DNA of 64,000 bases from Candidatus Methylomirabilota bacterium. Its GTDB lineage: Bacteria > Methylomirabilota > Methylomirabilia > Rokubacteriales > CSP1-6. Both the position numbers and the translations under genes were made by a program. The first letter of the stretch is position 1. Each line of letters opens with the position of its first letter. Of the stretch, positions 6,395 through 38,272 are shown piece by piece. Location of the stretch: the NCBI GenBank assembly GCA_035311385.1, contig DATGCY010000129.1, positions 566 through 64,565 on the forward strand, given 5' to 3'. The notes below the pieces were generated by a model, which did not search any database, had not been told where the DNA came from, and was given only the letters and a program-made list of their open reading frames with translations.

Positions 6395-7417
6395 ATGACT
6401 CGTTGCCGCGCCGTCGCTCTGGTGCTCATCCTCGCGGGATTCTTCGCCGGCCGGCCCGGGCTCGCGCAGGACACGCGGGTGGAGGCGGCCCGGAAGGAAG
6501 GCAAGGTCGTCTGGTACACCTCCCTTGCCCTGTCCAGCGCGGAGAAAATTGCCAAGCTCTTCGAGGCCGAGTATCCCGGCATCAAGGTCGAGGTGCAGCG
6601 CACCGGCTCGCAGCGCATCCTGCAGCGCGTAATGCAGGAGCTCCAGGCCAACATCAAGAACGTGGACGTGATCCACACTTCGGATGCCGGCCACTACGTC
6701 CTTCTCAAGGACAAGAAGCTCCTCATGAAGTACACGCCGGCAGGCGTGGAGCGGTTCCCCGTCTCTTTCAAGGACAAGGACGGCTATCACTACGGGCTGC
6801 GGGCCACCGTCAACGTGATCGCCTACAACACCAAAGCCGTGTCGGCGAGCGACGCGCCCAAGACTTGGAAGGATCTCCTCGATCCGCGCTGGAAGGGCAA
6901 GCTCGTTACCGCGCATCCGGGCTACAGCGGCGTCACCGCCACCCACGTGCTCGCCCTCGTGAATCTCTACGGCTGGGACTACTTCAAGCAGCTCGCGCAG
7001 AACCGGCCCATGCTCGTGCAATCGGCGGTGGATCCCTCCACCGTGGTCGCTTCGGGGGAACGCGCGGTGGCCGCCAACGGCGGCGACTACACCTTCTACC
7101 AGATGAAGAAGAAGGGGAATCCCGTGGCGATCGTCTTCCCCAAGGAGGGCGTGCCCCTCGTGGTGTCGCCCACCGCCATCACGGCCTTCGCGCCCCATCC
7201 GAATGCGGCCAAGCTCTTCACCGACTTCATCTTCAGCCGTCCCATTCAGCAGGTCCTCGCGGACAGCGAAGGCCTCTACACCGGCCATCCCGACGTGTCC
7301 TATCCCGCCGACCAGCCCAAGCTTTCCGAGCTCAAGCTGCTGCAGGTCGACGCCGAGGAGCTGGAGAAGCGCAACGAGGAGATCAAGACGCGCTTCGTCG
7401 AGTTCTTCGGGGCCTGA
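6395..7417 (+). CDS. ABC transporter periplasmic substrate-binding protein (Fe3+/tricarboxylate-type SBP family 1)
   Basis: 340 aa. Signal peptide MTRCRAVALVLILAGFFAGRPGLAQD. Two-lobe SBP pattern. GAGGGAG SD. Starts 11 nt after the PrpD stop. Confidence 0.85.
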   Translation: MTRCRAVALVLILAGFFAGRPGLAQDTRVEAARKEGKVVWYTSLALSSAEKIAKLFEAEYPGIKVEVQRTGSQRILQRVMQELQANIKNVDVIHTSDAGHYVLLKDKKLLMKYTPAGVERFPVSFKDKDGYHYGLRATVNVIAYNTKAVSASDAPKTWKDLLDPRWKGKLVTAHPGYSGVTATHVLALVNLYGWDYFKQLAQNRPMLVQSAVDPSTVVASGERAVAANGGDYTFYQMKKKGNPVAIVFPKEGVPLVVSPTAITAFAPHPNAAKLFTDFIFSRPIQQVLADSEGLYTGHPDVSYPADQPKLSELKLLQVDAEELEKRNEEIKTRFVEFFGA

Positions 7418-7427
7418 TTCCGCCACG

Positions 7428-9170
7428 GTGAGCCGGGAGACGGGCGCCGCCTCCACGCCGATCCTGATTCGCCATCGCCCGGCCTGGCGGGAGCGGATCG
7501 ACCGCTCGGCGCCGGTCTGGGTTCTGGCCGCCGCCGCCCTCGTCCTCCTGATCCTCCTACCCCTGGCCTGGCTTGGCTACATGAGCGTGCAGGGCGAGGG
7601 CGGATTCACCCTCGCGCAGTATGCCCGCGTGTTCGCGGACCCGCGCCTCCAGCGGGCCCTCTGGAACACCGTGGTGCTCGCCCTCTGGTCCGGCGTCATA
7701 GCGGTGGCCATCGGCGCGCCCATGGCGTGGCTCACCGCGCGCACGGATCTTCCGTGGTCGCGCGCGATCCGGAGCCTCGTCATGGCGTCCTTCGTGACCC
7801 CGCCCTTCCTGGGCGCCTTCGCGTGGGTCATGCTCGCCGGCCCCAACGCGGGCTACCTCAACAAGCTCTACCGGAGCCTCACAGGGGCCGAGGAGCCGCT
7901 TTTCAACATCTTCACCATGACGGGGCTGATCTTCGTGGTCGCCCTCTACACCTTCCCGTACGTGTACATCATGATCGCCAATACCCTCGGCCTGATCGCC
8001 TCCGATCTCGAGGAAGCTGCGGCCATCCTGGGCGCCCATCGCCTGCAGGTGGCGCTCACCGTGACCCTGCCCATGGTGCTGCCTGCCATCCTGAGCGGAT
8101 TCATCCTCGCCGTGCTGCAGGCCTTGGCGCTGTTTGGCTCTCCCGCCATCCTCGCTTTGCCCGCGGGCTTCCACACCATCACCACCCAGGTGTGGGCCCT
8201 CTTCCAGTACCCCCCGAAGATCGAGATGGCGGCGGCCTGCTCGGTGCCCCTCCTTCTCTCCACCGCGCTCCTCCTTCTCGTGCAGAAGAAGCTACTCGGC
8301 CGGCGCGGCTATGCCTCGGTGGGAGGCAAGGGCGGCCAGCGCCGGGTCATCCCGCTCGGCGCCTGGCGCTATCCCGCGCTGGCGGGCTGCCTCGCCGTCC
8401 TGGCCTGCGCGGTGTTCCTCCCCTACAGCGTGCTCGCCCGCGCCGCCTTCTCGCGCGCGTGGGCAGAACCGCTCAGCTGGGAGAACTTCACCCTCGCCAA
8501 CTGGTCCTTCACCTTCCTCTACAGCGCGACCCAGAGCGCCATCGTCAACACCCTCGAGCTGGGCGTGCTCACCGCCTGCGTAGGCGCGGCGCTGGCCGCC
8601 CTCCTCGCCTACATCACCACCCGCAAGCTCGTGGTCGGCCACCAGGTTTTGGCCTTTCTCACCCTCGCTCCCGTGGTCATCCCGGGCATCGTGCTCGCCG
8701 TCGCCCTCTTCATCGCCTACACGCGCCCGCCCTTCCTCCTCTATGGGACGCTCTGGATCCTGTTCATCGCCTATCTCACCAAGGAGATGCCCGTCGGCTA
8801 CTCGCAGTCCGACGCGACCTTCCGCGGCATTCACCCGGAGTTGGAGGAGGCCGGGCGAATCCTGGGCGCCGGACGGCTCCGCGTGCTCGGCGAGATCACC
8901 GCGCCCTTGGCGAAGAGCGGCATCATCGCCACGTGGTGCTTCATCTTCATCGGGGTCATCCGCGAGCTGTCCGCGTCCATCATCCTCTTCACCCCCAGCA
9001 CCAAGGTCATGTCCGTCGTCATCTTCGATCTCAAGGAGGAGGGGCAGTTCGGAGCCATCGCCGTGCTCGGCCTCTTCATGCTGCTCATGACCTTCGTGGT
9101 GGTCGCCCTTATGCAGTCTCTCCTCGGCCGTGACGTGATGGGCGCGCGCTCGTCGAGCTCGGCGGGCTAA
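7428..9170 (+). CDS. ABC transporter permease, fused two-domain (FbpB/PotB-PotC-like)
   Basis: GTG 7428 is in frame 11 nt after the SBP stop. About 580 aa, about 12 TM segments, two EAA-like loops (e.g. EEAAAILGA, LEEAGRILGA). The N-terminal extension in the track is a frame artefact. Confidence 0.8.
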   Translation: MSRETGAASTPILIRHRPAWRERIDRSAPVWVLAAAALVLLILLPLAWLGYMSVQGEGGFTLAQYARVFADPRLQRALWNTVVLALWSGVIAVAIGAPMAWLTARTDLPWSRAIRSLVMASFVTPPFLGAFAWVMLAGPNAGYLNKLYRSLTGAEEPLFNIFTMTGLIFVVALYTFPYVYIMIANTLGLIASDLEEAAAILGAHRLQVALTVTLPMVLPAILSGFILAVLQALALFGSPAILALPAGFHTITTQVWALFQYPPKIEMAAACSVPLLLSTALLLLVQKKLLGRRGYASVGGKGGQRRVIPLGAWRYPALAGCLAVLACAVFLPYSVLARAAFSRAWAEPLSWENFTLANWSFTFLYSATQSAIVNTLELGVLTACVGAALAALLAYITTRKLVVGHQVLAFLTLAPVVIPGIVLAVALFIAYTRPPFLLYGTLWILFIAYLTKEMPVGYSQSDATFRGIHPELEEAGRILGAGRLRVLGEITAPLAKSGIIATWCFIFIGVIRELSASIILFTPSTKVMSVVIFDLKEEGQFGAIAVLGLFMLLMTFVVVALMQSLLGRDVMGARSSSSAG

Positions 9171-9174
9171 CCGC

Positions 9175-10263
9175 GTGCCCGGCGTCACCATCACGGGACT
9201 CCGCAAGAGCTACGGCGACGTGGGCGCGGTGTCGGGCCTCGACCTCCGCGTGGAGCCGGGTGAGCTGGTGGCGCTGCTCGGACCATCCGGGTGCGGGAAG
9301 ACGACCACCCTCCGACTCGTGGCCGGCTTCCTCACTCCGGAGGCAGGCGAGATCTGGGTCGGCGACCGCTGCCTCTCCTCGCCCTCCGCCGTCATCCCGC
9401 CTGAGCGCCGTCGCATGGCCATGATCTTCCAGAGCTACGCCTTGTGGCCGCACATGACCGTGCACCAAAACGTGGCCTACGGCCTGCGCTTCACGGGCAG
9501 CCCGCGCGCCGATCGCGAGCGGCGGGTGCGCGACATCCTGCGCGCGGTGCAGCTCGAGGGCTACGGGGCGCGCTATCCCGGTGAGCTCTCGGGCGGCCAG
9601 CAGCAGCGGGTGGCCGTGGCGCGGGCCCTCGTGGTCGAGCCGGAGATCCTCCTCCTCGACGAGCCGCTCAGCAACCTGGACGCGAATCTTCGCGAGGAGA
9701 TGCGCTTCGAGATCCGGCGCCTCCATGAGCAGTTCGGCATCACCACCCTCTACGTCACTCACGATCAAGCGGAGGCCATGGTCATCTCCGACCGGGTGGC
9801 CGTGCTCCAGCACGGCCGCGTGGCGCAGATCGGCTCCGCCGAGGAGCTCTTCGAGCGGCCGCGCACCCGCTTCGTCGCGGAGTTCATCGGCCGGACCAAT
9901 CTGCTCGACGCCGTGGCCGTCGGAGCGGACCGGGTGAGCTTCGGCCAGGTGCGACTGCAGGTGGCCGCGCGCGATCTCTCACCGGGCGCCCGCGTGGTCA
10001 TCTCCATCCGCCCGCACCAGATCGAGCTCGGGCCGGAGGCATCGGCGGTGGCGTCCGACAATGTGGTCGCCGGAGACGTGGTGCGCGCGAGCTTTCTGGG
10101 CGACAGCGTCGATTATCAGGTGAAGCTGACGGAGGGTGACGTGGTGCTGAGAGTGACCACGCCCACCCCGCCGCGCGCGCGGCCCGGTGAGCGCGTGCGC
10201 CTCCTCATCCCGGCGGGCGCCTGCTTCCCGCTTCCCGACGAGTCCCCGCGCAAACTCAGCTGA
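9175..10263 (+). CDS. ABC transporter ATP-binding protein (PotA/FbpC-like importer ATPase with C-terminal TOBE-like domain)
   Basis: Walker A GPSGCGKTT, signature LSGGQQQRVAVARAL, Walker B ILLLDEPLSNLD, H-loop YVTHDQ. Confidence 0.9.
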   Translation: MPGVTITGLRKSYGDVGAVSGLDLRVEPGELVALLGPSGCGKTTTLRLVAGFLTPEAGEIWVGDRCLSSPSAVIPPERRRMAMIFQSYALWPHMTVHQNVAYGLRFTGSPRADRERRVRDILRAVQLEGYGARYPGELSGGQQQRVAVARALVVEPEILLLDEPLSNLDANLREEMRFEIRRLHEQFGITTLYVTHDQAEAMVISDRVAVLQHGRVAQIGSAEELFERPRTRFVAEFIGRTNLLDAVAVGADRVSFGQVRLQVAARDLSPGARVVISIRPHQIELGPEASAVASDNVVAGDVVRASFLGDSVDYQVKLTEGDVVLRVTTPTPPRARPGERVRLLIPAGACFPLPDESPRKLS

Positions 10264-27911: not shown

Positions 27912-28589
27912 GTGAGTGGCCCCTCCGTGGTCGGCCGCGTTGCCGAGGTCTTCTACTCGATCCAAGGCGAGGGTGTCACCGCCGGCCTTCCCGCCGTGTT
28001 CGTGCGGCTGCAGGGCTGCACCGTCGGCTGCGTCTGGTGCGACACCAAGTACTCGTGGGACGCGGCGGGGGGGCGCGCCGCCGATGTCGATGGTCTCCTC
28101 CGGGAGGCCTCGGCGTATCCGTGCCGACGCGTAGTGGTCACGGGCGGGGAGCCGCTCGAATCGCCGCTGTTCACCACTCTCACCCCCGCGCTGATTGACG
28201 CTGGCTTCGCCGTCGAGGTGGAGACGTCGGGTACCCTCGCTCCGCCCGTTGCCCTCGATCGAGCGATCCAGTGGAACGTGTCCCTCAAGCTCGCGGCCTC
28301 GGGCGTGGCCGACGCCACGCGGATCCGGCCCGCCGTCATTCGTGACTTCCTCTCGCGGGAGAGCTGGTGGAAGTTCGTGGTGACCGGCACGCGCGACGTG
28401 TCCGAGGTGCTGAGCCTGGCCGAGCGCTTCGCCCTGCCGAAGAGCCGCATCCTCCTCCAGCCGGAGGCCATCCGGCGCGAGGAGCTGATCGAGCGCGGGC
28501 CCTGGGTGGCCGAGATGTGCACGCGCCACGGCTTCCGCTTCTCTCCCCGTCTCCACATCATGCTATGGGGTCCCCGGCGGGGAGTGTAG
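27912..28589 (+). CDS. queE: 7-carboxy-7-deazaguanine synthase (radical SAM)
   Basis: [30 protein letters not shown] (CxxxCxxC-type cluster motif of QueE) ..VVTGGEP. Start is GTG 27912 or 27927. Confidence 0.8.
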
Positions 28590-29278
28590 TGGCTCCGCGC
28601 GCCGTCGTGCTGCTCTCGGGTGGCCTCGATTCCACGACCACTCTCGCCATCGCCCTCGCCGAGGGCTACGAGTGCTGCGCGCTGTCGTTCGACTATGGCC
28701 AGCGCCACGTGCGCGAGCTCGAGGCGGCGAGGCAGGTGGCCACGGCCCTCGGCGCCCGCCCGCACCTCACCCTGCGTCTCGATCTCCGCGCCATCGGCGG
28801 CTCCGCGCTCACCGCCGACATCGCCGTCCCCAAGGGACGGAACGAGGAGGCGATCGGCGAAGGCATCCCCGTCACCTACGTTCCCGCGCGCAACACCATC
28901 TTCCTCGCCCATGCCCTCGGGTGGGCCGAGGTGCAGCAGGCACAGGACATCTTCATCGGCGTCAACGCCCTCGACTACTCGGGCTATCCCGATTGCCGTC
29001 CGGAGTTCATTAAGGCCTTCGAGCGCTTGGCGAATCTCGCCACGCAGGCCGGCGTGGAAGGCAAGAGCCGCTTCCGCATCCACACCCCGCTCATCGCCCT
29101 GAGCAAGGGAGAGATCGTGGCCCGCGCCCACGAGCTCGGGGTGAACCTCGCCCTGACCTGGTCCTGCTATGCGCCCGAGGCCGACGGCCGCGCCTGCGGC
29201 CTCTGCGATTCGTGCCTCTTACGCAAGAAGGGCTTCGCCGCGGCGCGGCTCGTGGACCCCGTGCCCGTCGCGCATTGA
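28589..29278 (+). CDS. queC: 7-cyano-7-deazaguanine synthase
   Basis: GTG 28589 overlaps the QueE TAG (TAGTG) and gives (M)[16 protein letters not shown] (PP-loop) plus the C-terminal Zn-Cys cluster [10 protein letters not shown]. The track's upstream extension is a frame artefact. Confidence 0.85.
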
Positions 29279-29287
29279 CGGCCTGAC

Positions 29288-31285
29288 GTGACCGACTGGC
29301 GGAGCGTCCTTCAAGCCTTCCCCAAGGAGCGCACCTGGCTCCTGCCCGCCCTCCATGCCGTCCAGCACGAGCTGCGCTGGATTCCCGCTGCCGCGCTCGC
29401 CGAGGTCGCCGCACACCTCCGCGTGCCCGCCTCCGAGGCCTACGGGGTCGCCACGCACTATCCGGAGTTCAGGCTGACGGAGCCGCGCGCGCGGCTCATC
29501 CGTGTATGCACGGGCGTACCGTGCCGGATCCGCGGCGGAGTGGAGCTGCTCGCCTCCCTGCGCGCTGTCGCAGGGCCCGACGTGACGCTCGAGCCCTTCG
29601 ACTGCGCCTTCAACTGCTCCGTGGCGCCCGTGGTCGAAGTGGACGGCTCCTGTCATGGTCGCGTGGCGCGCGAGGACGTGAACCGCCTCCTCTCCTCGCC
29701 GGCTCCGCGGGCGTCATCCTCTCCGGAGTCGTCGCCCGCGCCGCCGGTGAAGGACCGGTCGTTCGCGGAGATCTTCCGCCGGGCGGCGGGGGCGGCGCGT
29801 CCCAGACTTCGCTTCCTGGTCGGCGTCGGCTCGTGCAGCCTGGCCGTCGGCGCGGAGGCGACCATGGAAGCGCTCACGCGCGAGGTGGCGCGCCGAGGTC
29901 TCGAAGCCGCCGTGGCCGCGGTGGGCTGCAACGGCATGTGTTGGGCCGCGCCCATGATGACGGTGGCGACGCCCGAGAGCGAGCTTCACCACCTGCCGCA
30001 CGCGACGGCCGATCGCCTCCCTGCGCTGCTCGACGCAGTAGCGGCGCGGCGGCTCGAGCCCCATCCCGGCATCACGGATGTGCTCAGGCATCAGCGCCGT
30101 GAGCTCACCGCCCGCTGCGGAGACGTGGAGCCTGACGACATCGGGGACGCGATCAGGCGCGGCTCCTATGCCACGCTGGCCGCCGCCCTCGAGGCGCGCC
30201 GGCCCGAGGCCGTCATCGAGGTGGTGAAGGCGGCGGGCCTGCGGGGGCGGGGCGGCGCCTATTTTGCCGCCGCCCTCAAGTGGGAAGGGACCCGCGGCGC
30301 CACGCGATCGCCCAAGTACTTCATCGTGAACGGCGAGGAGGGTGAGCCCGGCATCTTCAAGGATCGTCATCTCATGGAAGGCGATCCTCACCGCCTGCTC
30401 GAAGGCGCCCTCCTGGCGGCCTATGCGGCCGGCGCAGGCCACATCTATCTCTATGTTCACGGCGAAGCCCACCTCGCGGCCAAGCGAGTCGCCCGCGCCG
30501 TGGAGGAGGCACGAGCGTGGGGGCTCATCGGCCCACGTGTGCTCGAAAGCGACTTCTCCGTCGAGGTCGAGGTTCGGCGCGGGGCGGGCGGCTTCGTGCT
30601 GGGCGAGGAGACCGCGCTCATGGAATCGCTCGAGGGGCGGCGGGCCATGCCTCGCCCCAAGCCGCCCTTCCCGACGGAAGCGGGCCTCTTCGGGAAGCCC
30701 ACGGTCATCAACAACGTGGAGACGCTCTTCGCGGTGCCTCTCATCATGGATCGGGGCGCGGAGTGGTGGACCTCCCTCGGCGAGGGGCACGGGACGAAAT
30801 GCTTCGGCCTCTCCGGTCACCTGGCGCGCCCGGGCCTGGCCGAGGTCGAGATGGGAACGACGCTCCGGCATCTGATCGAGAGCATCGGGGGTGGGATGCG
30901 CTCCGGTCGCACGCTCACCGGCATGGTGCTCGGCGGGCCGTCGGGGATCATCGTGCCCCCACGCGAGCTCGACGAGCCGCTGGTGCCCGGCGGCCGCGTC
31001 AATCCGGGCACGGGGGGCCTCGTGGCCCTCGACGAGACGGCTTCTGTCCGCGACGTGATCCGCACCCTGCTCGACTTCAACACGCGCGAATCGTGCGGCA
31101 AGTGCACGCCCTGCCGCGAGGGTACGGCACGACTGCGCGACATGCTCGACGCTCCCGCCGGCGCGGACGTCGCCCGAGTCACGGAGCTCGCCGAGGTGAT
31201 ACGCCTCGCCTCCCTCTGCGGCCTCGGGCAGGCCGCGCCGCTGTCCATCCTCTCCGCCCTCCGCGACTTCCCCGGCGCCCTTTAG
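29288..31285 (+). CDS. NAD-dependent formate dehydrogenase diaphorase subunit, fused FdsG(NuoE-like)–FdsB(NuoF-like)
   Basis: 665 aa. N-terminal thioredoxin-like 2Fe-2S module (CTGVPC..FDCAFNCSVAP). C-terminal NuoF module (GRGGAYF..NGEEGEPG FMN/NAD site; C-terminal CGKCTPCREG 4Fe-4S). Confidence 0.8.
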   Translation: MTDWRSVLQAFPKERTWLLPALHAVQHELRWIPAAALAEVAAHLRVPASEAYGVATHYPEFRLTEPRARLIRVCTGVPCRIRGGVELLASLRAVAGPDVTLEPFDCAFNCSVAPVVEVDGSCHGRVAREDVNRLLSSPAPRASSSPESSPAPPVKDRSFAEIFRRAAGAARPRLRFLVGVGSCSLAVGAEATMEALTREVARRGLEAAVAAVGCNGMCWAAPMMTVATPESELHHLPHATADRLPALLDAVAARRLEPHPGITDVLRHQRRELTARCGDVEPDDIGDAIRRGSYATLAAALEARRPEAVIEVVKAAGLRGRGGAYFAAALKWEGTRGATRSPKYFIVNGEEGEPGIFKDRHLMEGDPHRLLEGALLAAYAAGAGHIYLYVHGEAHLAAKRVARAVEEARAWGLIGPRVLESDFSVEVEVRRGAGGFVLGEETALMESLEGRRAMPRPKPPFPTEAGLFGKPTVINNVETLFAVPLIMDRGAEWWTSLGEGHGTKCFGLSGHLARPGLAEVEMGTTLRHLIESIGGGMRSGRTLTGMVLGGPSGIIVPPRELDEPLVPGGRVNPGTGGLVALDETASVRDVIRTLLDFNTRESCGKCTPCREGTARLRDMLDAPAGADVARVTELAEVIRLASLCGLGQAAPLSILSALRDFPGAL

Positions 31286-31554
31286 CCTGCCCCAAGCAAC
31301 CTGGCCACCGACGGAAACGGACGGCCATGCGTTCGAATCGCCGTCGCTAACAGTCTGAGGTCCCTCACCAAGGCCTCACGGAGAAACGGGTGGGTGGCGC
31401 CGGGGGCTCCTCCCGCGCCAGCGGCGTAGTGGGACCTCCTCGTCCCGTGCGCCGCTTGAAGAGCGGCGATTCGGGCGAGCGGGTGGCGGAGCCGTTGGCG
31501 CGGGAGGGTCCCCGGCGACAGGACCCACCCGACTCGCGTAAGCGGTGAGCGAGC

Positions 31555-32712
31555 CTAAGTAGTCACCGCCGACAGAGGACGCGGCGCCGAGCCGATGTAG
31601 TCAGCCCGCGGCCGGATCAGCCGGTTGTCCGCGTACTGCTCGAGGGCATGCGCGCACCAGCCGGCCACACGCCCCACCGCGAAGATCGACGTGCAGAGAT
31701 CGGGCGGAATGTCCAACGCGTCGTACACCACCGCCGAGAAGAAGTCCACGTTGACGGGCAGCGTGGTGCGCGCGCGCATCCCCTCGTAGACACGCTCCGC
31801 CACCTCGAAGAGACGCTCCCGGCCCGTGGCCGCGGCCATCTCCTTGGCCAGACCGCGGAGCACCCGCGCCCGCGCATCGTCCACCTTGTACACACGATGG
31901 CCGAAGCCGGGCATCCGCGCCGCAGGGTTGCTCCGCTCCCGTTTGGAGAGTCCAGCACGAGCGCCGATGCGAGACTCGACGAAGGCCTCCGCCCGTCGCG
32001 GATCGTCGATTTCGCGGAGCATGGAAAGGACATCCTCGTTGGCCCCGCCGTGACGCGGCCCCTTGAGGGTGGCGATGGCGGCGACGACGGCGGCATGAAG
32101 ATCCGCCACGGTCGCCACCGCCACCCGGGCCGCGAAGGTGGAGGCGTTGAACTCGTGGTCGGCGTGGAGGGTCAGCACGAGGTCCATCACGCGCGCGACC
32201 TCGGGGGCGGGCTCGCGTCCGCTCAGGAGGTGGAGGAAACGGGCAGCGTGCGATCCGGCGGGCGCACGGTGCTCTGGCTCGCGGCCCGTCCGGATACGAT
32301 GCCAAGCCGCCACTGTCTCGGGAATCAGCGTCATGAGCCGGTAGGCCTTCCGAAGATTGGCCGGCTCCTCGTTCGAACGCGCGTCCCCATCGTAGGCCGC
32401 CGCCAGTGACACTGCGGTGCGGAGAGCGTCGAGCGGATGGCAGTCTCGCGGCAGCGAGCGCAGGAGAGCCTCGATGGGACCGGGGAGGCCACGACGCTCG
32501 TCGAGCCGCGCCTGGAACTCCGCCCGTTCTGCCGCCGTCGGCAGCTCACCGAACCACAGCAGGCGCGTCACGTCCTCGAAGCTGACGGCGTGGGCCAGAT
32601 CGCCGATCTCGTAGCCGCGGTAGTAGAGGCGCCCCGCCGCCCCATCCACCTGACAGATGGCCGACCGTGCAGCGATGACATCCTCGAGTCCCGCCTTCCA
32701 TGCCTGGTCCAT
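31555..32712 (-). CDS. citrate synthase (type II; could equally be a 2-methylcitrate synthase)
   Basis: 385 aa with catalytic-region motifs (GFGHRVYK..DAR, HAD..HEFNAST, GPRHGGAN). AGGAGGAG SD. Confidence 0.9.
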   Translation of the reverse strand: MDQAWKAGLEDVIAARSAICQVDGAAGRLYYRGYEIGDLAHAVSFEDVTRLLWFGELPTAAERAEFQARLDERRGLPGPIEALLRSLPRDCHPLDALRTAVSLAAAYDGDARSNEEPANLRKAYRLMTLIPETVAAWHRIRTGREPEHRAPAGSHAARFLHLLSGREPAPEVARVMDLVLTLHADHEFNASTFAARVAVATVADLHAAVVAAIATLKGPRHGGANEDVLSMLREIDDPRRAEAFVESRIGARAGLSKRERSNPAARMPGFGHRVYKVDDARARVLRGLAKEMAAATGRERLFEVAERVYEGMRARTTLPVNVDFFSAVVYDALDIPPDLCTSIFAVGRVAGWCAHALEQYADNRLIRPRADYIGSAPRPLSAVTT

Positions 32713-32771
32713 GTTCGCTCCTCCTGTGCGAGAGCTTGAGACGAGCCCCGGAACCCTTGACTTATCTGGGC

Positions 32772-32803
32772 TTGATTATAGTTGATTAATATTGATCAAA
32801 CAA
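32772..32803 (-). promoter_or_regulatory. AT-rich divergent promoter island: sigma70-like promoter for citrate synthase plus three TTGAT(T/C)A direct repeats at 10-bp spacing
   Basis: Minus-strand reading gives TTGTTT-17 nt-TATAAT (plus 32798-32803 and 32775-32780). Plus strand shows TTGATTAtag / TTGATTAata / TTGATCAaac at 32772-32801. This is the only strongly AT-rich patch in the window. Confidence 0.3.
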
Positions 32804-32850
32804 TACAGGACTGGATCGGGGCTGTGGATGGCTGCTAAGATAGCGAAGAC

Positions 32851-33108
32851 ATGGTGATCCTGGACGGCGAGCAGTACCTGACGGGAGAGGAGGCGGCGGC
32901 GACCCTCGGCATCAAGCGGGAAACGCTCTACGCCTACGTCAGCCGGGGCGTGCTCCGGAGCTATCGACAGGGCATCAAGCGCCAGCGCCTCTATCGCCGG
33001 ACGGACGTCGAGCGGCTGATGCAGCTCACACCCTCCTCGGAGGAGCCGCTCGCCAGCCGCGGGCCCGCCCCCGAGGTCCCTCTCGCGGAGTCCTGGATCA
33101 GAGACTAG
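32851..33108 (+). CDS. small helix-turn-helix DNA-binding protein (MerR/excisionase-type HTH_17-like)
   Basis: 85 aa. LTGEEAAATLGIKRETLYAYVSRGVL is a canonical HTH. Lies 52 nt upstream of fdsA, same strand. Confidence 0.6.
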   Translation: MVILDGEQYLTGEEAAATLGIKRETLYAYVSRGVLRSYRQGIKRQRLYRRTDVERLMQLTPSSEEPLASRGPAPEVPLAESWIRD

Positions 33109-33160
33109 CGTCCCGCAAGCTCGGCTAGAATGTGGGCGCAGCCGAGACCTGGATCAACCC

Positions 33161-35842
33161 ATGAGCCTCCGCGTCATCGTCGACGGCACGCCGGTCGAGG
33201 TTCCCGCGGGTGCCACGGTGCTGGACGCCGTGAACCGCCTCGGCCTCCCCCTGCCCCAGCTCTGCAAGGATCCCGACCGTGCCCCGCTCGGTGCGTGCCG
33301 CACCTGTCTCGTCCACGTGGAGGGCCAGCGTGGACTGCCCGCGGCCTGCCATCTTCCCGCGCGCGATGGCCTGGTCGTGAACACCCAGCACCCTGACGCC
33401 GTCAAGACGCGCAAGGCCGTACTCGACCTGACCTGGTCCATGCTCACGGCGAGCCCGGAACGCGACGGCTTCGGCCAGGTGGGCGTGGCCGCCCAGCATC
33501 ACGCGCTGACGGCTCCCGGGCATCCGCCCCAGCACCACTTCGCGGTGGACGAGTCGAAGAGCTTCTTCGTCCTCGACCGTGAGGCCTGCATCCTCTGCGG
33601 CCGTTGCACGACCGCCTGCGCCGATGTGCAGCACATCGGGGCCATCTCCATGATCGGACGCGGCCACGAGGCGCGGGTCGGGGTGGTGGGAGACGGGCCG
33701 ATGTCGGGGTCCATCTGCACCTCGTGCGGTCAATGCGTAGCGACCTGCCCCACGGGCGCCCTCCGCCCGAAGGAGCAGGCGATTCCCATCGTCCGCGAGG
33801 TCGAGACCACGTGTCCGTATTGCGGCGTGGGCTGCGGCATTCGGCTCCACATCAGGCAGGACGGTCGCCTCTCCGTCATGGCCGACGACGTGCCCGAGAA
33901 TCGATCGAGCGGGGGGACCCTCTGCGTCAAGGGCCGTTTCGGGACCGGCTTCGTCCACTCGCGGGACCGGATCACCTCGCCCATGGTCCGACGCGACGGC
34001 GTCTGGGTCGAGACGTCGTGGGACGAAGCGCTCGAGGCCGCCGCGGAAGGGCTGGCGCGGCACCACGGCCGATTCGGGGCCTTTGCGTCAGCCAAGGCGA
34101 CCAACGAGGACGGCTACGTCATCCAGAAGCTCGCCCGGGTAGTCATGGGCACCAACAACGTTGATCACTGCACGCGCCTCTGCCACTCGCCGTCGGTAGA
34201 GGCGATGCTCACCTCCATGGGGTCTGGCGCCACCTCGAACTCGTACCAGGACTATGAGGAGGCCGGGTGCATCATGGTGGTGGGGGCGGATGCCTCGGCT
34301 AACCATCCCGTCATCGCCATTCGGCTCCGCAAGGCGGTGAGCCGCGGAGCCCGTCTCATCGTGATCAATCCGAAGCGGATCGAGCTGTGCGACCAGGCCG
34401 ACCTCTGGATCCAGGAGCGGCCCGGGACCGACGTCGCCCTGTTCAATGCTATGGCCAGAGTGCTGCTCGACGAGGGGCTGGCTGACCTGGACTTCATTCG
34501 CTCGCGAACGGAAGGCTTCGAGGCATGGGCCGCCTCCCTCGAGCCGTACACCCTCGAGTACGCGGCGGGAGTGACCGGGGTGCCCGCCTCGAGCATCGCC
34601 CAGGCCGCCCGCTGGTATGCCCGACCAGCGTTTTCGGGGTCGTGCCTCATCTGGGGCATGGGGATCACCCAGCACATCAATGGGACGGCGAACGCGCACG
34701 CGCTGCTGAACCTCTCCCTCGCCGCCGGCCAGATGGGCTTCCCCGGCTCCGGCATTTCGCCGCTCCGCGGCCAGAACAACGTGCAGGGCTGCGGAGACGC
34801 GGGCGCCATTCCCACCAATCTCCCAGGCTACGCGGACTACTCGGCGGCGAGCCTGAGCCGCTTCGAGCGCGCCTGGGGAACGCGCCCACCGCAGAGGCCC
34901 GGGATGGTGGTCACCGAAATGAGCGAGGGCTGCCTCGACGGCTCGATCCGCGCCATATACGTGGTCGGCGAGAACCCCCTGCTTGCCGAGCCCGACCTTC
35001 ATCACGTGGAGAAGGCCTTCCGCCAGCTCGACTGCCTGGTCGTGCAGGATCTCTTCCTCAACGAGACCGGTGATCTAGCCCACGTCTTCCTGCCCGCCGC
35101 TGCCTTTGCCGAAAAGGACGGCACCTTCACCAACTCCGAGCGCCGCGTGCAGCGAGTCCGCCGCGCCATCGATCCGCCCGGTCAGGCCAAAGCCGACTGG
35201 TGGATTACCTGCGAGCTGGCCAAGCGCATCGCACGGCGGCTGGGGCGGCCCGTGCAGGGCTTCGACTTCGCGCACCCCTCGGAAATCTTCGACGAGATGG
35301 CCAGACTCTGGCCGGCCATCAATGGGCTGTCGTACGCACGGCTCGAGTCGGGGGGCATCCAGTGGCCCTGCCCCACGTCCGATCATCCAGGGACCCGCTT
35401 CCTCTATGGCGAGACCTTCCCCACGGGCAAGGCGAGGTTCGTGTCGGTCAGCCAGGGAAGTGCGGCGGCGGAGCTCCCCGACCCCGACTATCCCTTCGTG
35501 CTCAACACGGGCCGTCTCCTCTACCACTGGCACGGCGGGACGCTGACCCGTCGAGTGCAGGGGCTACTGGAGCTGGCGCCCAAGCTGCAGATCGCCGTCA
35601 ACCCCGCCGACGCGCGACGGCTCGGATTCGGCGACGGCGGCCCGGTCAGGGTCGTATCACGACGCGGGGAGCTGACCGGCTACGCGCACGTCACGGAGGC
35701 GGTACGCCCCGGAGCGCTGTTCGTCCCCTTCGTGAAGCTCGCCGACTCCGCGGCCAACTTCCTCACCAATTCCGCCCACGATCCCAGCTCCAAGATCCCC
35801 GAGTACAAGGTCTGCGCGGTGCGCCTCGAGCGCATAGCGTGA
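33161..35842 (+). CDS. formate dehydrogenase catalytic (alpha) subunit, NAD-dependent FdsA type, Cys (not Sec) at the Mo-ligand position
   Basis: 893 aa. N-terminal 2Fe-2S and 4Fe-4S Cys clusters (CRTCLVHV..; CILCGRCTTAC; CTSCGQCVATCP; CPYCGVGCG). Molybdopterin domain with VDHCTRLCHSPS. Confidence 0.9.
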   Translation: MSLRVIVDGTPVEVPAGATVLDAVNRLGLPLPQLCKDPDRAPLGACRTCLVHVEGQRGLPAACHLPARDGLVVNTQHPDAVKTRKAVLDLTWSMLTASPERDGFGQVGVAAQHHALTAPGHPPQHHFAVDESKSFFVLDREACILCGRCTTACADVQHIGAISMIGRGHEARVGVVGDGPMSGSICTSCGQCVATCPTGALRPKEQAIPIVREVETTCPYCGVGCGIRLHIRQDGRLSVMADDVPENRSSGGTLCVKGRFGTGFVHSRDRITSPMVRRDGVWVETSWDEALEAAAEGLARHHGRFGAFASAKATNEDGYVIQKLARVVMGTNNVDHCTRLCHSPSVEAMLTSMGSGATSNSYQDYEEAGCIMVVGADASANHPVIAIRLRKAVSRGARLIVINPKRIELCDQADLWIQERPGTDVALFNAMARVLLDEGLADLDFIRSRTEGFEAWAASLEPYTLEYAAGVTGVPASSIAQAARWYARPAFSGSCLIWGMGITQHINGTANAHALLNLSLAAGQMGFPGSGISPLRGQNNVQGCGDAGAIPTNLPGYADYSAASLSRFERAWGTRPPQRPGMVVTEMSEGCLDGSIRAIYVVGENPLLAEPDLHHVEKAFRQLDCLVVQDLFLNETGDLAHVFLPAAAFAEKDGTFTNSERRVQRVRRAIDPPGQAKADWWITCELAKRIARRLGRPVQGFDFAHPSEIFDEMARLWPAINGLSYARLESGGIQWPCPTSDHPGTRFLYGETFPTGKARFVSVSQGSAAAELPDPDYPFVLNTGRLLYHWHGGTLTRRVQGLLELAPKLQIAVNPADARRLGFGDGGPVRVVSRRGELTGYAHVTEAVRPGALFVPFVKLADSAANFLTNSAHDPSSKIPEYKVCAVRLERIA

Positions 35843-35948
35843 CCTGCCGACCCCCCGTTCGCGACAGGTGATCTCGATCACCTCCACCTCGTCGTAGAGG
35901 TGACGCGGCGAGGCCCGGCAGCCGCGGGACCTCAGCCTCGAGCTGTCC

Positions 35949-36800
35949 TCAGTCGGGCAGTTCCCGCAGGAAGTCGTCGAGGATGTGGGCGAAGGCCTCG
36001 GGTGCGTCCAGGACCAGATGGTGGTAGACGCCAGACATGGCCACGACCTTGGCCCGGGGCATGGCCTCGAGCATCCGCTCGACCATCTCCTTCGGCATGA
36101 TCGGCGATAGCTCGCCGCGCACGAGGAGTGTCGGCGCCTCGATCCGATCGAGAAGCTTCCAGCCGTCGACGGGGTTTCGGGCGCCGTTGCACTGCGGGTC
36201 GAAACGATAGAGGAAGTGGCCGTTGCGCTGCGTGATGCCCTGCCGTCCCAAGTGGTCGAGCAACTCGGGAGTGGCCAGCGTCTCGGGGGGCAGAAGCCGA
36301 AAGCTCCGGAGTGCCTGGTCGAGCGATTCGTGGCGGCGGGGGCCGCGGTGACCTCGCCGATGCATGGCCTCCAAGCGCCCTTCCGGCAGGGACGGGCGGC
36401 TGTCCACTACGCAGAGCATGCGTACCCGATCCGGATGCCACGCGGAGAAGCCGAGGGCATTGTGGCCGCCCATCGAGTGGCCGACGAGCGCCATTCGCCG
36501 CCAGCCGAGCGCATCCATGACCCCGACCAGGTCCGAGGCGAACTGCTCCGTTCCATAGCGAGAGTCGGGCGCCCAGTCGCTTTCGCCGTGGCCCCGCTGA
36601 TCGAGCGAGATCACGTGGAACCTGTCAATGAATGTCGGCACCACCGCGTCGAACCAATGGGCGTGGGCAGAGCCTCCGTGGAGGAAGCAGAGGGCCGGGC
36701 GACCAGGCTGGCCCCACTCGAGCGCACGGAGAGTCATTCCGTTGACGGTGAATGCACGGCGAGTTGCCGCGTCACAGATGAAAGAGGGGTGTGTAGTCAT
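35949..36800 (-). CDS. alpha/beta-fold hydrolase
   Basis: 283 aa. HGGSAHAHWF oxyanion region, GHSMGG nucleophile elbow, C-terminal His. Confidence 0.8.
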   Translation of the reverse strand: MTTHPSFICDAATRRAFTVNGMTLRALEWGQPGRPALCFLHGGSAHAHWFDAVVPTFIDRFHVISLDQRGHGESDWAPDSRYGTEQFASDLVGVMDALGWRRMALVGHSMGGHNALGFSAWHPDRVRMLCVVDSRPSLPEGRLEAMHRRGHRGPRRHESLDQALRSFRLLPPETLATPELLDHLGRQGITQRNGHFLYRFDPQCNGARNPVDGWKLLDRIEAPTLLVRGELSPIMPKEMVERMLEAMPRAKVVAMSGVYHHLVLDAPEAFAHILDDFLRELPD

Positions 36801-36862
36801 GCCCGACAGTGTAGCAGCGAAAAAAAAACTTGGGCTTCTCGCACGCTCCTCGTAATTTGGGG

Positions 36863-38272
36863 ATGAGAATGAATCGCGCTCCGGACAACAACGAGAAGAA
36901 GCAGCGGCCGATCCTCTTGGGCGTTCTGGTCGGGTCTTTCGTCGCCCTCGTCATCACGGGTTGGATGGTGCTCTCGCCCTCCGCCTTCCTCCACCGCCAG
37001 CTCGCAGCCGCATCTTCCTCGCCGGCCGCCCCCGCGGCTCCCCCCGTGGAGCGTCCCGTGCGCGGCCGCGTCCTCGCCGCAGACACGGGTGCGCCCCTGC
37101 GCGGGGCCTCGGTGTGGGCGGGCAAGGAAGAGCTCCGGACGGACGAGGAGGGCCGGTTCACCACGCCGCCCATCGGGCTGGGAGCCGCCTTCCTCGTCAA
37201 AAGCCCGGGCTACGAGCTTCGCCGGCTCGTCGCTGACAAGGACGAGATGACGATCAGCCTTCCCCCGCGCCCGGTGCGCGCCGCCTACCTGACGTATTTC
37301 GGCGTCGGCGACAAGACTATCCGCGAGCGGGTGCTCGACCTCGTCTCCAAGACCGAGCTCAACGCAGTGGTCATCGACGTGAAGGGTGATCGAGGCATGA
37401 TCCCCTATCGCACCCAGGTGCCGCTGGCCCTCGAGGTGGGGGCGCAGGGACCGGTGATCATCAAGGACTTCGAGGGCTTGCTCGCCGGGCTCAAGGCTCG
37501 CGGGATCTACACCATCGCTCGCATCGTGACCTTCAAGGACAATGTCCTGGCCCAGGCCAAGCCGGAGTGGGCCATCATCGACACGCGGACGGACAAGCCC
37601 TGGATCGACAACGAGAAGCTCGCTTGGGTCGATCCCTTCCGCGAGGAAGTCTGGAGCTACGACATCGCCATCGCCAAGGAGGCGGTGAGCAAGGGCTTCG
37701 ACGAGGTCCAGTTCGACTACGTCCGCTTCCCCACCGACGGCAAGCTCTCGGCGGCGCGGTACTCTCAGCCGAACAACTCGCAGACGCGCCTGCCCACCAT
37801 CGCGGCCTTCCTCGCCCAGGCCCGTCGCGAGCTCGCCCCCACCGGCGCCTTCGTGGGAGCGGACGTCTTCGGGTATACGGCGTTCAACGAAAATGACACG
37901 GACATCGGCCAGCGGGTCGAGGAGCTCTCCGCGCACCTCGACTACATCTGCCCCATGGTCTATCCTTCCGGCTATCACCGCGGGATCCCCGGCGTGCGCA
38001 ATCCCGTGGCTCAGCCCTACGAGATCGTGAAGGAGAGCGTGCGGCTCACCCGCAAGCGCTCCACGGGAACGGTGGTGGTACGACCCTGGCTCCAGGATTT
38101 CAAGGACTACGCCTTCGACAAGCGCATCTTCGGCGTGCCCGAGATCAAGGCGCAGCTTCGCGGCGCCAAGGACGGCGGCGCCATCGGCTACATGCTGTGG
38201 AACCCGAAGAACGACTACACGGGCGCGGCTCTGCCACCCAAGACCACGGCCACGGCAAAGGTCAGCCCCTAG
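36863..38272 (+). CDS. DUF4015-type putative glycoside-hydrolase-like (TIM-barrel, GHL) protein
   Basis: About 470 aa. N-terminal TM anchor. Conserved NAVVIDVKGDRG and FDEVQFDYVRFP blocks typical of the DUF4015/GHL family. Confidence 0.65.
   Translation: MRMNRAPDNNEKKQRPILLGVLVGSFVALVITGWMVLSPSAFLHRQLAAASSSPAAPAAPPVERPVRGRVLAADTGAPLRGASVWAGKEELRTDEEGRFTTPPIGLGAAFLVKSPGYELRRLVADKDEMTISLPPRPVRAAYLTYFGVGDKTIRERVLDLVSKTELNAVVIDVKGDRGMIPYRTQVPLALEVGAQGPVIIKDFEGLLAGLKARGIYTIARIVTFKDNVLAQAKPEWAIIDTRTDKPWIDNEKLAWVDPFREEVWSYDIAIAKEAVSKGFDEVQFDYVRFPTDGKLSAARYSQPNNSQTRLPTIAAFLAQARRELAPTGAFVGADVFGYTAFNENDTDIGQRVEELSAHLDYICPMVYPSGYHRGIPGVRNPVAQPYEIVKESVRLTRKRSTGTVVVRPWLQDFKDYAFDKRIFGVPEIKAQLRGAKDGGAIGYMLWNPKNDYTGAALPPKTTATAKVSP

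Follow-up and report, generated by a model that had tools for sequence, protein, structure and literature searches.

A citrate synthase gene and a BldC-like helix-turn-helix gene lie between the formate dehydrogenase genes in a lineage of Rokubacteria

Results

Genes and features at the locus

In the 64,000-nucleotide stretch of DNA considered here (positions 566 to 64,565 of contig DATGCY010000129.1 of a Candidatus Methylomirabilota bacterium; hereafter, the window), fdsGB and fdsA, two genes assigned to an NAD-linked formate dehydrogenase, are separated by 1875 nt holding gltA, a citrate synthase gene on the opposite strand, and a gene encoding a small helix-turn-helix (HTH) protein (Table 1). 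The four genes had been placed at these positions in a preliminary description of this DNA, and all are present in the list of open reading frames (ORFs), with domain matches that agree. The identical gene arrangement was found on three independent metagenome contigs (L001-L003), such that the order is not an assembly artefact.

To compare gene order, a genome collection was scanned with the FdsGB alignment and 15 window proteins were mapped onto all loci; nearly all of the 80 loci returned by the scan belong to metagenome-assembled genomes (MAGs) of Methylomirabilota/Rokubacteria. The direction of change was read from ~100 related loci. Trees were calculated by neighbor-joining with bootstrap only, using as marker sets either the fds genes or five concatenated flank markers.

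Table 1. Positions of the genes and intergenic elements of the locus (window coordinates).
Feature	Position	Strand	Remarks
fdsGB	29288..31285	+	665 aa; Pfam and NCBIfam domains; PDB sequence matches
Convergent spacer, fdsGB stop to gltA stop	31286..31554		269 nt, ~71% G+C
gltA	31555..32712	-	385 aa; Pfam Citrate_synt 400 bits, E 1e-119, positions 1-357 of 357
AT-rich divergent island	32713..32850		repeats, -10-like boxes; putative promoter/operator roles
Three direct TTGAT(T/C) repeats	32772, 32782, 32792		10 bp apart; 19-island alignment
HTH gene	32851..33108	+	85 aa; Pfam HTH_17 / MerR_1; TIGR01764 'excisionase family'
-10-like box TAGAAT (GGCTAGAAT)	33126..33131	+	29 nt 5' of fdsA ATG; shared with relatives
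fdsA	33161..35842	+	893 aa; TIGR01591 Fdh-alpha 729.8 bits (cutoff 666.25)
queE-queC	27912..29278	+	Radical_SAM and QueC domains on identical contig L001; 9-nt gap to fdsGB

A predicted two-subunit formate dehydrogenase

FdsGB presents a Pfam 2Fe-2S_thioredx domain at residues 7-136 and Complex1_51K, SLBB and NADH_4Fe-4S domains at residues 313-662. Residues 175-661 align with full-length FdsB, HoxF and HydB chains, the N-terminal domain of FdsB included, while matches in the PDB comprised FdsB (6vw7_B and 6tg9_B, both over residues 181-663) and the beta subunit of MeFDH1 (7e5z_B). The match to full-length FdsB, together with the Pfam 2Fe-2S domain, indicates that the chain contains a complete FdsG and a complete FdsB. 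FdsGB is predicted to be the diaphorase subunit of an NAD-linked Mo/W formate dehydrogenase, in which an FdsG/NuoE-like [2Fe-2S] domain (residues 1-136) is fused to an FdsB/NuoF-like part (residues ~175-662) that comprises an N-terminal thioredoxin-like domain, a flavin mononucleotide (FMN)/NADH site and a [4Fe-4S] cluster. The cluster cysteines are invariant in the FdsGB alignment (A1). In the thioredoxin-like domain (residues ~181-218), only three cysteines are invariant (C183, C214 and C218), as compared to the four of a CX4C...CX3C [2Fe-2S] site.

The fusion of FdsG and FdsB had been noted previously. A single chain is indeed encoded, but such fusion is not unusual, being the norm in this lineage, where nearly all of the best 120 of 6017 FdsGB homologues are full-length proteins of 660-715 aa with the same domains, and being known from MeFDH1, a two-gene alpha/beta enzyme whose beta subunit joins FdsG and FdsB in one chain without the FdsB N-terminal domain (PMC10869683).

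FdsA contains the Pfam domains Fer2_4, Fer4, Molybdop_Fe4S4, Molybdopterin and Molydop_binding, and best matches the alpha subunit of MeFDH1 (7vw6/7e5z; E 1e-200, residues 7-889) and then Rhodobacter capsulatus FdsA (6tg9). The Cys-His motif TRLCH(S) and the Arg motif PLRGQNNVQG coincide in the alignment with 7vw6_A. By these matches, FdsA is assigned as the catalytic subunit, in which N-terminal [2Fe-2S] and [4Fe-4S] domains would precede a Mo/W-bis-pyranopterin guanine dinucleotide domain with cysteine, rather than selenocysteine, as ligand. Together, fdsGB and fdsA are predicted to encode a two-subunit, MeFDH1-like NAD-linked Mo/W formate dehydrogenase.

Two known systems serve for comparison. 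With MeFDH1/FoDH1 of Methylobacterium extorquens AM1 (Fdh1A/Fdh1B; 7E5Z, 7VW6, 8J83), the window shares the two-gene type with a fused beta subunit, and the alpha subunit of that enzyme is the closest to FdsA. In contrast to MeFDH1, the fusion of 665 aa in the window retains the FdsB N-terminal domain, and the two genes lie 1.9 kb apart with two unrelated genes between them, one on the opposite strand. In the FdsABG(D) enzymes of R. capsulatus and Cupriavidus necator (6TG9/6TGA, 6VW7), the cofactor-binding domains match subunit for subunit, with FdsB from residue 10-12 to its end corresponding to window residues 181-663 and FdsA aligning over its full length. There, however, the fdsGBACD operon is contiguous and has individual genes for FdsG and FdsB, which are fused in the window. 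The adjacency expected of subunit genes in one operon was seen in ~50 related loci and is lacking in the window.

Comparison of insert-bearing genomes yielded ratios of nonsynonymous to synonymous substitution rates (dN/dS) of 0.11-0.19 for fdsA and 0.21-0.32 for fdsGB, similar to those of flanking housekeeping genes, and of 0.14-0.20 for gltA. Judged by substitution patterns, all four genes are under purifying selection, including both fds genes after the split.

Gene order in related genomes

The locus belongs to a conserved block, arsP-ubiD-ubiA-ubiE-(variable)-[queE-queC]-fdsGB-[gltA(-)-HTH(+)]-fdsA-abhydrolase(-)-DUF4015-deacetylase-namZ(-), which was encountered in three states. In most loci (~50), fdsGB is directly followed by fdsA, providing the uninterrupted order that the preliminary description had proposed to seek in relatives. 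Among these, 28 loci of a distant clade, in which UbiD is 72-81% identical to that of the window and the block contains neither queEC nor gltA-HTH, have the fdsA start at -10 to +2 nt from the fdsGB stop; in insert-free loci of the nearer clade, the spacer between the two genes is widened to 43-195 nt. In a second group (the window, L005, L076, L009, L011, L019, L026, L032, L033, L054, L060 and L082, and in part L066 and L079), gltA(-)-HTH(+) lies between the fds genes. Finally, loci reached by look-up of HTH homologues (L084-L100) have the order queC / gltA(-)-HTH(+) / abhydrolase and lack both fds genes, of which no remnants were found when these loci were searched for fdsGB and fdsA.

Individual loci depart from these states. 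In L016 and L075, fdsGB is kept and no fdsA is found beside the abhydrolase gene, such that single-subunit remnants of the enzyme exist. At the place where fdsA was lost, L084 carries an IS110-family transposase gene (7196-8080), while in L066 an IS1595-family transposase gene (9188-10150) separates the TTGAT repeats from the HTH gene, and gltA looks disrupted. Ten contigs with Rokubacteria synteny and an FdsA, where present, ~74-81% identical to that of the window (L008, L011, L013, L014, L019, L026, L032, L057, L075 and L080) are filed under Nitrosocosmicus (an archaeon), Verrucomicrobiia, Limnocylindria, Binatia, Acidoferrum, Dormiibacterota, Deferrimicrobiaceae and Vicinamibacteria MAGs, and are probably mis-binned.

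The near clade, which contains queEC, was separated from the distant clade with 100% bootstrap support, and with the five concatenated flank markers, 83% of replicates joined all gltA/HTH-bearing loci in one group. The fds-less loci fall within the insert-bearing clade B (100% support) and are polyphyletic, meaning that both fds genes were lost at least twice. Because fds genes are contiguous in the distant clade and gltA-HTH appears in the nearer one, the difference is read as an insertion. The simplest history would proceed from a contiguous operon via one gltA-HTH insertion to the loss of both fds genes on at least two independent occasions. The split of the operon is a lineage-specific gene-order variant.

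The opposite direction was considered as well, namely that gltA-HTH was resident and came to be flanked by fds genes, or that an interleaved order came first and the pair was later deleted to give contiguous operons. The many queC / gltA-HTH / abhydrolase loci without fds genes or detectable remnants fit such a course, the 43-195 nt spacer of insert-free near-clade loci could be a deletion scar, and insert-bearing loci are not monophyletic on the fds-gene tree. Against this stand the at least 28 distant-clade loci with abutting or overlapping fdsGB and fdsA and neither queEC nor gltA-HTH in the block, the low likelihood that two subunits of one enzyme would arrive separately on both sides of a resident pair, and the position of the fds-less loci, scattered within clade B. 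Reversed polarity is accordingly held to be improbable.

The losses also raise the thought that the split marks a nonfunctional formate dehydrogenase on its way out of the lineage, given the repeated disappearance of both fds genes in clade B, the retention of fdsGB only in two loci, the IS110 and IS1595 elements in L084 and L066, and the failure to find an fdhD gene nearby. Yet, neither ORF is disrupted, conservation extends to the Cys-His and Arg motifs and the cluster cysteines, and the dN/dS values of fdsA and fdsGB resemble those of the housekeeping flanks, so that decay seems an improbable account.

Age of the insertion

The inserted genes do not differ in composition from their surroundings. 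The G+C content and G+C content at third codon positions (GC3) are 0.697 and 0.829 for gltA and 0.690 and 0.907 for the HTH gene, with neighboring genes ranging from 0.653 to 0.719 and from 0.817 to 0.905, respectively, such that only the GC3 of the HTH gene lies outside, at 0.907. The anomaly that a comparison of the insert with its flanks might have revealed was thus absent in both measures. Between the window and L011, the pair quoted here, synonymous divergence (dS) was 0.84 for gltA and 1.03 for the HTH gene, as compared to 0.63 for UbiD, 0.92 for QueC, 0.82 for FdsA and 0.90 for FdsGB. Inheritance of the arrangement extends, moreover, to at least 13 species-level genomes that fall into two sub-clades. 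Native composition, flank-like dS and wide inheritance together show the insert to be old, not recent.

The earlier proposal of an insertion into an ancestral operon consequently holds insofar as the fds genes are contiguous in distant relatives with the same block, while any notion of a recent or foreign insert does not, given composition, dS and inheritance. An ancient, conserved gltA/HTH order among relatives had been named as an outcome that would speak against insertion; this was nearly what was found, the order being widely inherited but restricted to one clade.

To the left, the insert immediately follows the stop codon of fdsGB. No transposase gene was found between fdsGB and fdsA in the window, and inspection of the two junctions by eye revealed no repeats. 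An insertion sequence, transposon or miniature inverted-repeat transposable element (MITE) as the vehicle is not supported on these grounds, IS110 and IS1595 elements being found in single relatives only.

The citrate synthase and the HTH protein

GltA scored 418.2 against TIGR01800, just below the cutoff of 421.3, and the catalytic columns H, H and D are intact and conserved in the window protein and its orthologues. By sequence, GltA is assigned as a citrate synthase of type II or as a 2-methylcitrate synthase.

In the HTH protein, a linker of variable sequence joins a winged HTH (wHTH) core (residues 1-60) to the C-terminal tail E75-V-P-L-A-E-S-W-I-R84 (APEVPLAESWIRD). In the AlphaFold2 model, the core has a predicted local distance difference test score of 84-91, strands and helices extend to residue 59 only, and the remainder is disordered. 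Foldseek placed the BldC-DNA complexes 6ama and 6amk on top, with a template modeling score of 0.80 when normalized to BldC and 29% identity, followed by Pukovnik Xis, from a mycobacteriophage, and MerR DNA-binding domains. A classical MerR protein is not indicated, as the 85-residue chain has no helix past residue 59 and the conserved DNA elements are repeated in the same direction instead of forming a palindrome. Rather, the model shows a MerR-like winged helix without coiled coil or effector domain, as in the BldC family.

Streptomyces BldC (6AMA, 6AMK), the founder of the MerR-like wHTH-only family, is likewise small and free of the MerR coiled coil and effector domain. It binds AT-rich direct repeats as head-to-tail multimers (PMC5859096), and AT-rich phased direct repeats of that kind lie beside the HTH gene. 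The two differ in that the window repeat is TTGAT(T) with a 10-bp period, that of BldC being AATTNNNN(C) with 9 bp, and in that the window protein has an extra linker, a P-x-A-E-x-W-I tail not described for BldC and a tie to citrate synthase in both genome context and evolution.

A search for homologues of the HTH protein returned 2140 sequences, the best 120 of which are 64-95% identical to it. The tail is invariant in 35 close homologues, and in stand-alone homologues of 42-67% identity, P77, A79 and W82 are conserved at 90% or more (alignments A2 and A3). Even at an identity as low as 42%, stand-alone homologues carry the motif (I/L)P-x-A-(E/D)-x-W-(I/V) beyond a hypervariable linker. Such conservation beyond a variable linker resembles what is typical of a docking peptide.

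It was further noted that JGI often labels homologues of the HTH protein 'citrate synthase'. Many homologues among representatives of clusters at 50% identity are 400-457 aa long, and all nine of the long ones tested proved to be fusions of an N-terminal HTH_17 domain and Citrate_synt, which explains the label. These fusions (P0315-P0387) form a widespread HTH_17 and citrate-synthase-like class, annotated 'citrate synthase family protein' (e.g., WP_275976828.1 of Polyangium aurulentum), whose N-terminal domain is homologous to the HTH protein (E 1e-7 to 1e-11). At least one catalytic residue is missing in 9 of the 16 examined, which would fit a sensor role. The window differs from these in having separate, divergent genes and a gltA with all catalytic residues kept. 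No published account was found of HTH_17 and citrate synthase fusions or of a citrate-synthase-associated BldC-like protein.

In the fusions P0340 and P0385, an L-P-x-A-x-S-W-V motif is retained between the HTH and citrate synthase domains, while some other fusions pass from the HTH domain directly into 'GEPVLESAITAI', which resembles 'VPLAESWI'. A derivation of the tail from the first beta-strand of citrate synthase was considered and set aside, since in P0340 and P0385 the first strand is present in addition to the tail motif and apart from it; 11 residues are, moreover, too few for a statistical test.

A divergent citrate synthase/HTH pair occurs in a second neighborhood as well, on contigs with HTH homologues named as Chloroflexota (L104 and L105); the citrate synthase gene is intact in L104 and in two ORFs in L105. 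In L102, L103, L104 and L105, the HTH locus of this second phylum is found between an Acetyltransf_6 gene and NHL/thioredoxin genes.

The protein had been described as being of excisionase type. While the domain label is borne out by the match to TIGR01764, the behavior is not, with no integrase gene being present among the genes called or domain-scanned nearby, the site being fixed in more than 30 loci, the composition being native, the fold being BldC-like and homologues being fused to citrate synthase. A role as excisionase was hence discarded. The protein is probably a regulator and/or partner of the adjacent citrate synthase.

The island between gltA and the HTH gene

The claim of an AT-rich island between the divergent genes was borne out, with G+C content falling to 0.59 from ~0.70 nearby. 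In an alignment of 19 distinct gltA-HTH intergenic regions, three direct repeats and a TGnTAnnAT box located 6-9 nt before the HTH start are conserved. In the window, this box, TGcTAAGAT (32833-32841), has the form of an extended -10 element and lies 9 nt 5' of the ATG, which suggests a near-leaderless HTH mRNA. The reverse complement of the first repeat reads TATAAT (32780-32775) and faces gltA.

Within the 64 kb of the window, the double-repeat pattern occurs in the island only, with 0 matches expected by chance. The triple TTGAT repeat was found exactly once per locus in 30 loci, all 30 of which carry gltA-HTH. The presence of three phased direct repeats beside the HTH gene hints at head-to-tail binding in the manner of BldC, although this is only suggestive. 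From their conservation and placement, we infer that the HTH protein would bind the TTGAT repeats, thereby tuning gltA and probably its own gene.

fdsA and the question of control by the HTH protein

In near-clade loci, whether insert-bearing or insert-free, a -10-like box lies 29-45 nt 5' of the fdsA start. The TAGAAT box of the window has equivalents in clade B (GTGTAGAAT), in L076 (GGTATGATA), in six insert-free loci (GTGTATCAT) and in the insert-free L006 (GCTATAATG), and is a candidate promoter of fdsA itself. The box at 33126 was not called by the generic sigma-70 scan. Since insert-bearing and insert-free loci share the box, fdsA already possessed this element when the insert arrived upstream of it.

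The spacing between the HTH gene and fdsA is as short as 52 nt in the window and 51 nt in L076, that is, in the sub-clade of the window only; in clade B, it is 308-961 nt. The window sequence coding for the HTH tail at 33085-33100 (GCGGAGTCCTGGATCA) recurs in near-copy, at 14 of 16 bases, at 33141-33156 (GCCGAGACCTGGATCA), just 5' of the fdsA start. This may be chance or may be the trace of a deletion that shortened the gap in the sub-clade.

The preliminary description had deemed it plausible that fdsA is under the promoter and control of the HTH protein, an idea that the comparison with relatives does not support. The box predates the insert, TTGAT repeats are confined to the island, with none near fdsA, the gap is far from constant, and the HTH gene persists where fdsA is lost; at the same time, none of the fetched loci has the HTH gene beside fdsA without gltA on its other side. 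HTH control of fdsA as the main arrangement is unlikely. Transcripts of the HTH gene may read through into fdsA across the intervening 52 nt, in which no terminator is predicted.

These observations bear equally on a broader version of that idea, namely that a recent, mobile cassette of gltA and an excisionase gene inserted and took over fdsA. Such a cassette would accord with the TIGR01764 match and with a phage Xis being the second-best fold, as it would with the co-directional placement of the HTH gene and fdsA at close spacing. Nonetheless, neither an integrase nor a transposase was seen among the genes called or scanned nearby and no direct repeats were seen by eye at either junction, and the pair is native in composition, has the dS of its flanks and sits at a site fixed in more than 30 loci. 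Likewise, the variable gap in clade B, the greater age of the fdsA box, the lack of TTGAT repeats near fdsA, the retention of the HTH gene where fdsA was deleted and the fusion of its homologues to citrate synthase all speak otherwise. The comparative data thus largely refute the mobile-cassette proposal, to which we assign little probability.

The convergent spacer and the upstream queE-queC genes

As described earlier for a GC-rich, structured spacer of ~270 bp, the region between the fdsGB and gltA stop codons folds with a minimum free energy of -162 kcal/mol (z = -6.2, relative to shuffled controls). It holds an imperfect GC-rich palindromic element of ~150 nt at ~31387-31535 (inverted repeat I1) that is also found at the same place in the closest relative, L004 (12039-12141); a 77% match to it occurs in L072 (16407-16522), an unrelated locus from a different genome. 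This suggests a dispersed MITE-like or repetitive extragenic palindromic (REP)-like repeat family of Methylomirabilota. In other relatives, the convergent stops of fdsGB and gltA are 5-13 nt apart (L026, L033, L054 and L082), while in L009, L011, L019, L060 and L076, different REP-like palindromes (CCCCTCACCCTGCCCTCTCCCC ... GGGGAGAGGGCAGGGTGAGGGG) directly follow the fdsGB stop. Given this variation, the spacer content is lineage-specific filler and no part of the design of the insert. The spacer may act as a two-way transcription barrier. A search of the whole window against Rfam matched no family, such that the structured spacer is not a known RNA.

Upstream of fdsGB, the distance from QueC to FdsGB is 12-46 nt in most near-clade loci, as taken between the ends of tblastn hits with the stop codon excluded (loci identical to the window, 12 nt), and queE-queC is absent from the distant clade. 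The two genes probably joined the block in the near clade and are probably co-transcribed with fdsGB.

Discussion

Taken together, the comparisons favor an ancient insertion of a gltA-HTH module into a contiguous fds operon, with the HTH protein being tied to gltA and the fds genes functioning as separate units, a reading that we regard as reasonably probable. The course of events can be envisaged as follows. A tightly coupled fdsGB-fdsA operon would have resided within the conserved arsP-ubiD-ubiA-ubiE ... namZ block. In one sub-lineage, queE-queC would have been added upstream, after which the fdsGB-fdsA junction would have widened and gained a -10-like box for fdsA. A pre-formed gltA(-) and HTH(+) module would then have inserted between the fdsGB stop and that box and have been inherited vertically, leaving as units queE-queC-fdsGB and fdsA with its own box, with possible read-through from the HTH gene. 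Several descendants would later have deleted both fds genes and retained gltA-HTH. As for the module itself, the HTH protein would most likely bind the three 10-bp-phased TTGAT repeats head-to-tail, overlapping the gltA -10 element, and so tune citrate synthase expression and probably its own.

Several observations weigh against this account. The fds-gene tree splits the insert-bearing loci and groups the insert-free L006 with clade B, calling for one secondary loss of the insert or for recombination; two independent gains are also possible on these neighbor-joining trees. Among the Chloroflexota-type contexts, three of five keep the HTH gene without an adjacent citrate synthase gene, showing that the HTH protein is not strictly tied to a neighboring gltA. 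L104 shows good conservation of the first repeat only, and in those Chloroflexota-type loci without gltA for which DNA was available, the HTH gene is present and the repeats are absent. The TTGAT repeats could, as such, be promoter or upstream (UP)-type elements of gltA, not HTH sites. A generic scan for sigma-70 promoters and terminators over positions 29000-36900 yielded nothing, such that what is said here of promoters, as of operators and operons, draws on conservation only. Lastly, neither fdhD nor fdsC, which the preliminary description had suggested seeking elsewhere, was detected within the 64 kb or in the available flanks of the fetched loci in a tblastn search of limited sensitivity with Escherichia coli FdhD (best E in the window, 0.88), meaning that the maturation genes must lie elsewhere; no fdsD gene was noticed among the called neighbors, in the course of which no search aimed at fdsD was made.

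Of the two parts of the locus, the undescribed pairing of a regulator and citrate synthase is more interesting than the ordinary split of the fds genes. The P-x-A-E-x-W-I tail and the homology to the DNA-binding domain of the fusions suggest that the HTH protein contacts citrate synthase physically. More speculatively, and with a probability that we put clearly on the low side, the HTH proteins could constitute an undescribed, cross-phylum family of BldC-like regulators of citrate synthase that exists in fused forms, whose often catalytically dead enzyme domain could serve as a sensor, and in split forms, in which the tail would dock on the active enzyme, creating a trigger-enzyme circuit that reports entry into the tricarboxylic acid (TCA) cycle (oxaloacetate, acetyl-CoA or citrate) to the promoter. 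If this were true, the position between the fds genes might couple one-carbon oxidation and TCA entry.

For the Rokubacteria, the findings mean that the diaphorase and catalytic fds genes can be separated and that each can be lost, so that both genes should be looked for before 'formate oxidation' is assigned to genomes of this abundant soil group. The locus moreover provides a natural series of operon disassembly, leading from gene overlap to a spacer with a promoter-like box, to insertion of a module and to loss of the fds genes. The gltA-HTH module, with its three-repeat site, BldC-like fold, tail peptide and Rosetta-stone fusions, offers a testable candidate regulator of central carbon metabolism, one that spans uncultured phyla and is found in fused form in culturable myxobacteria.

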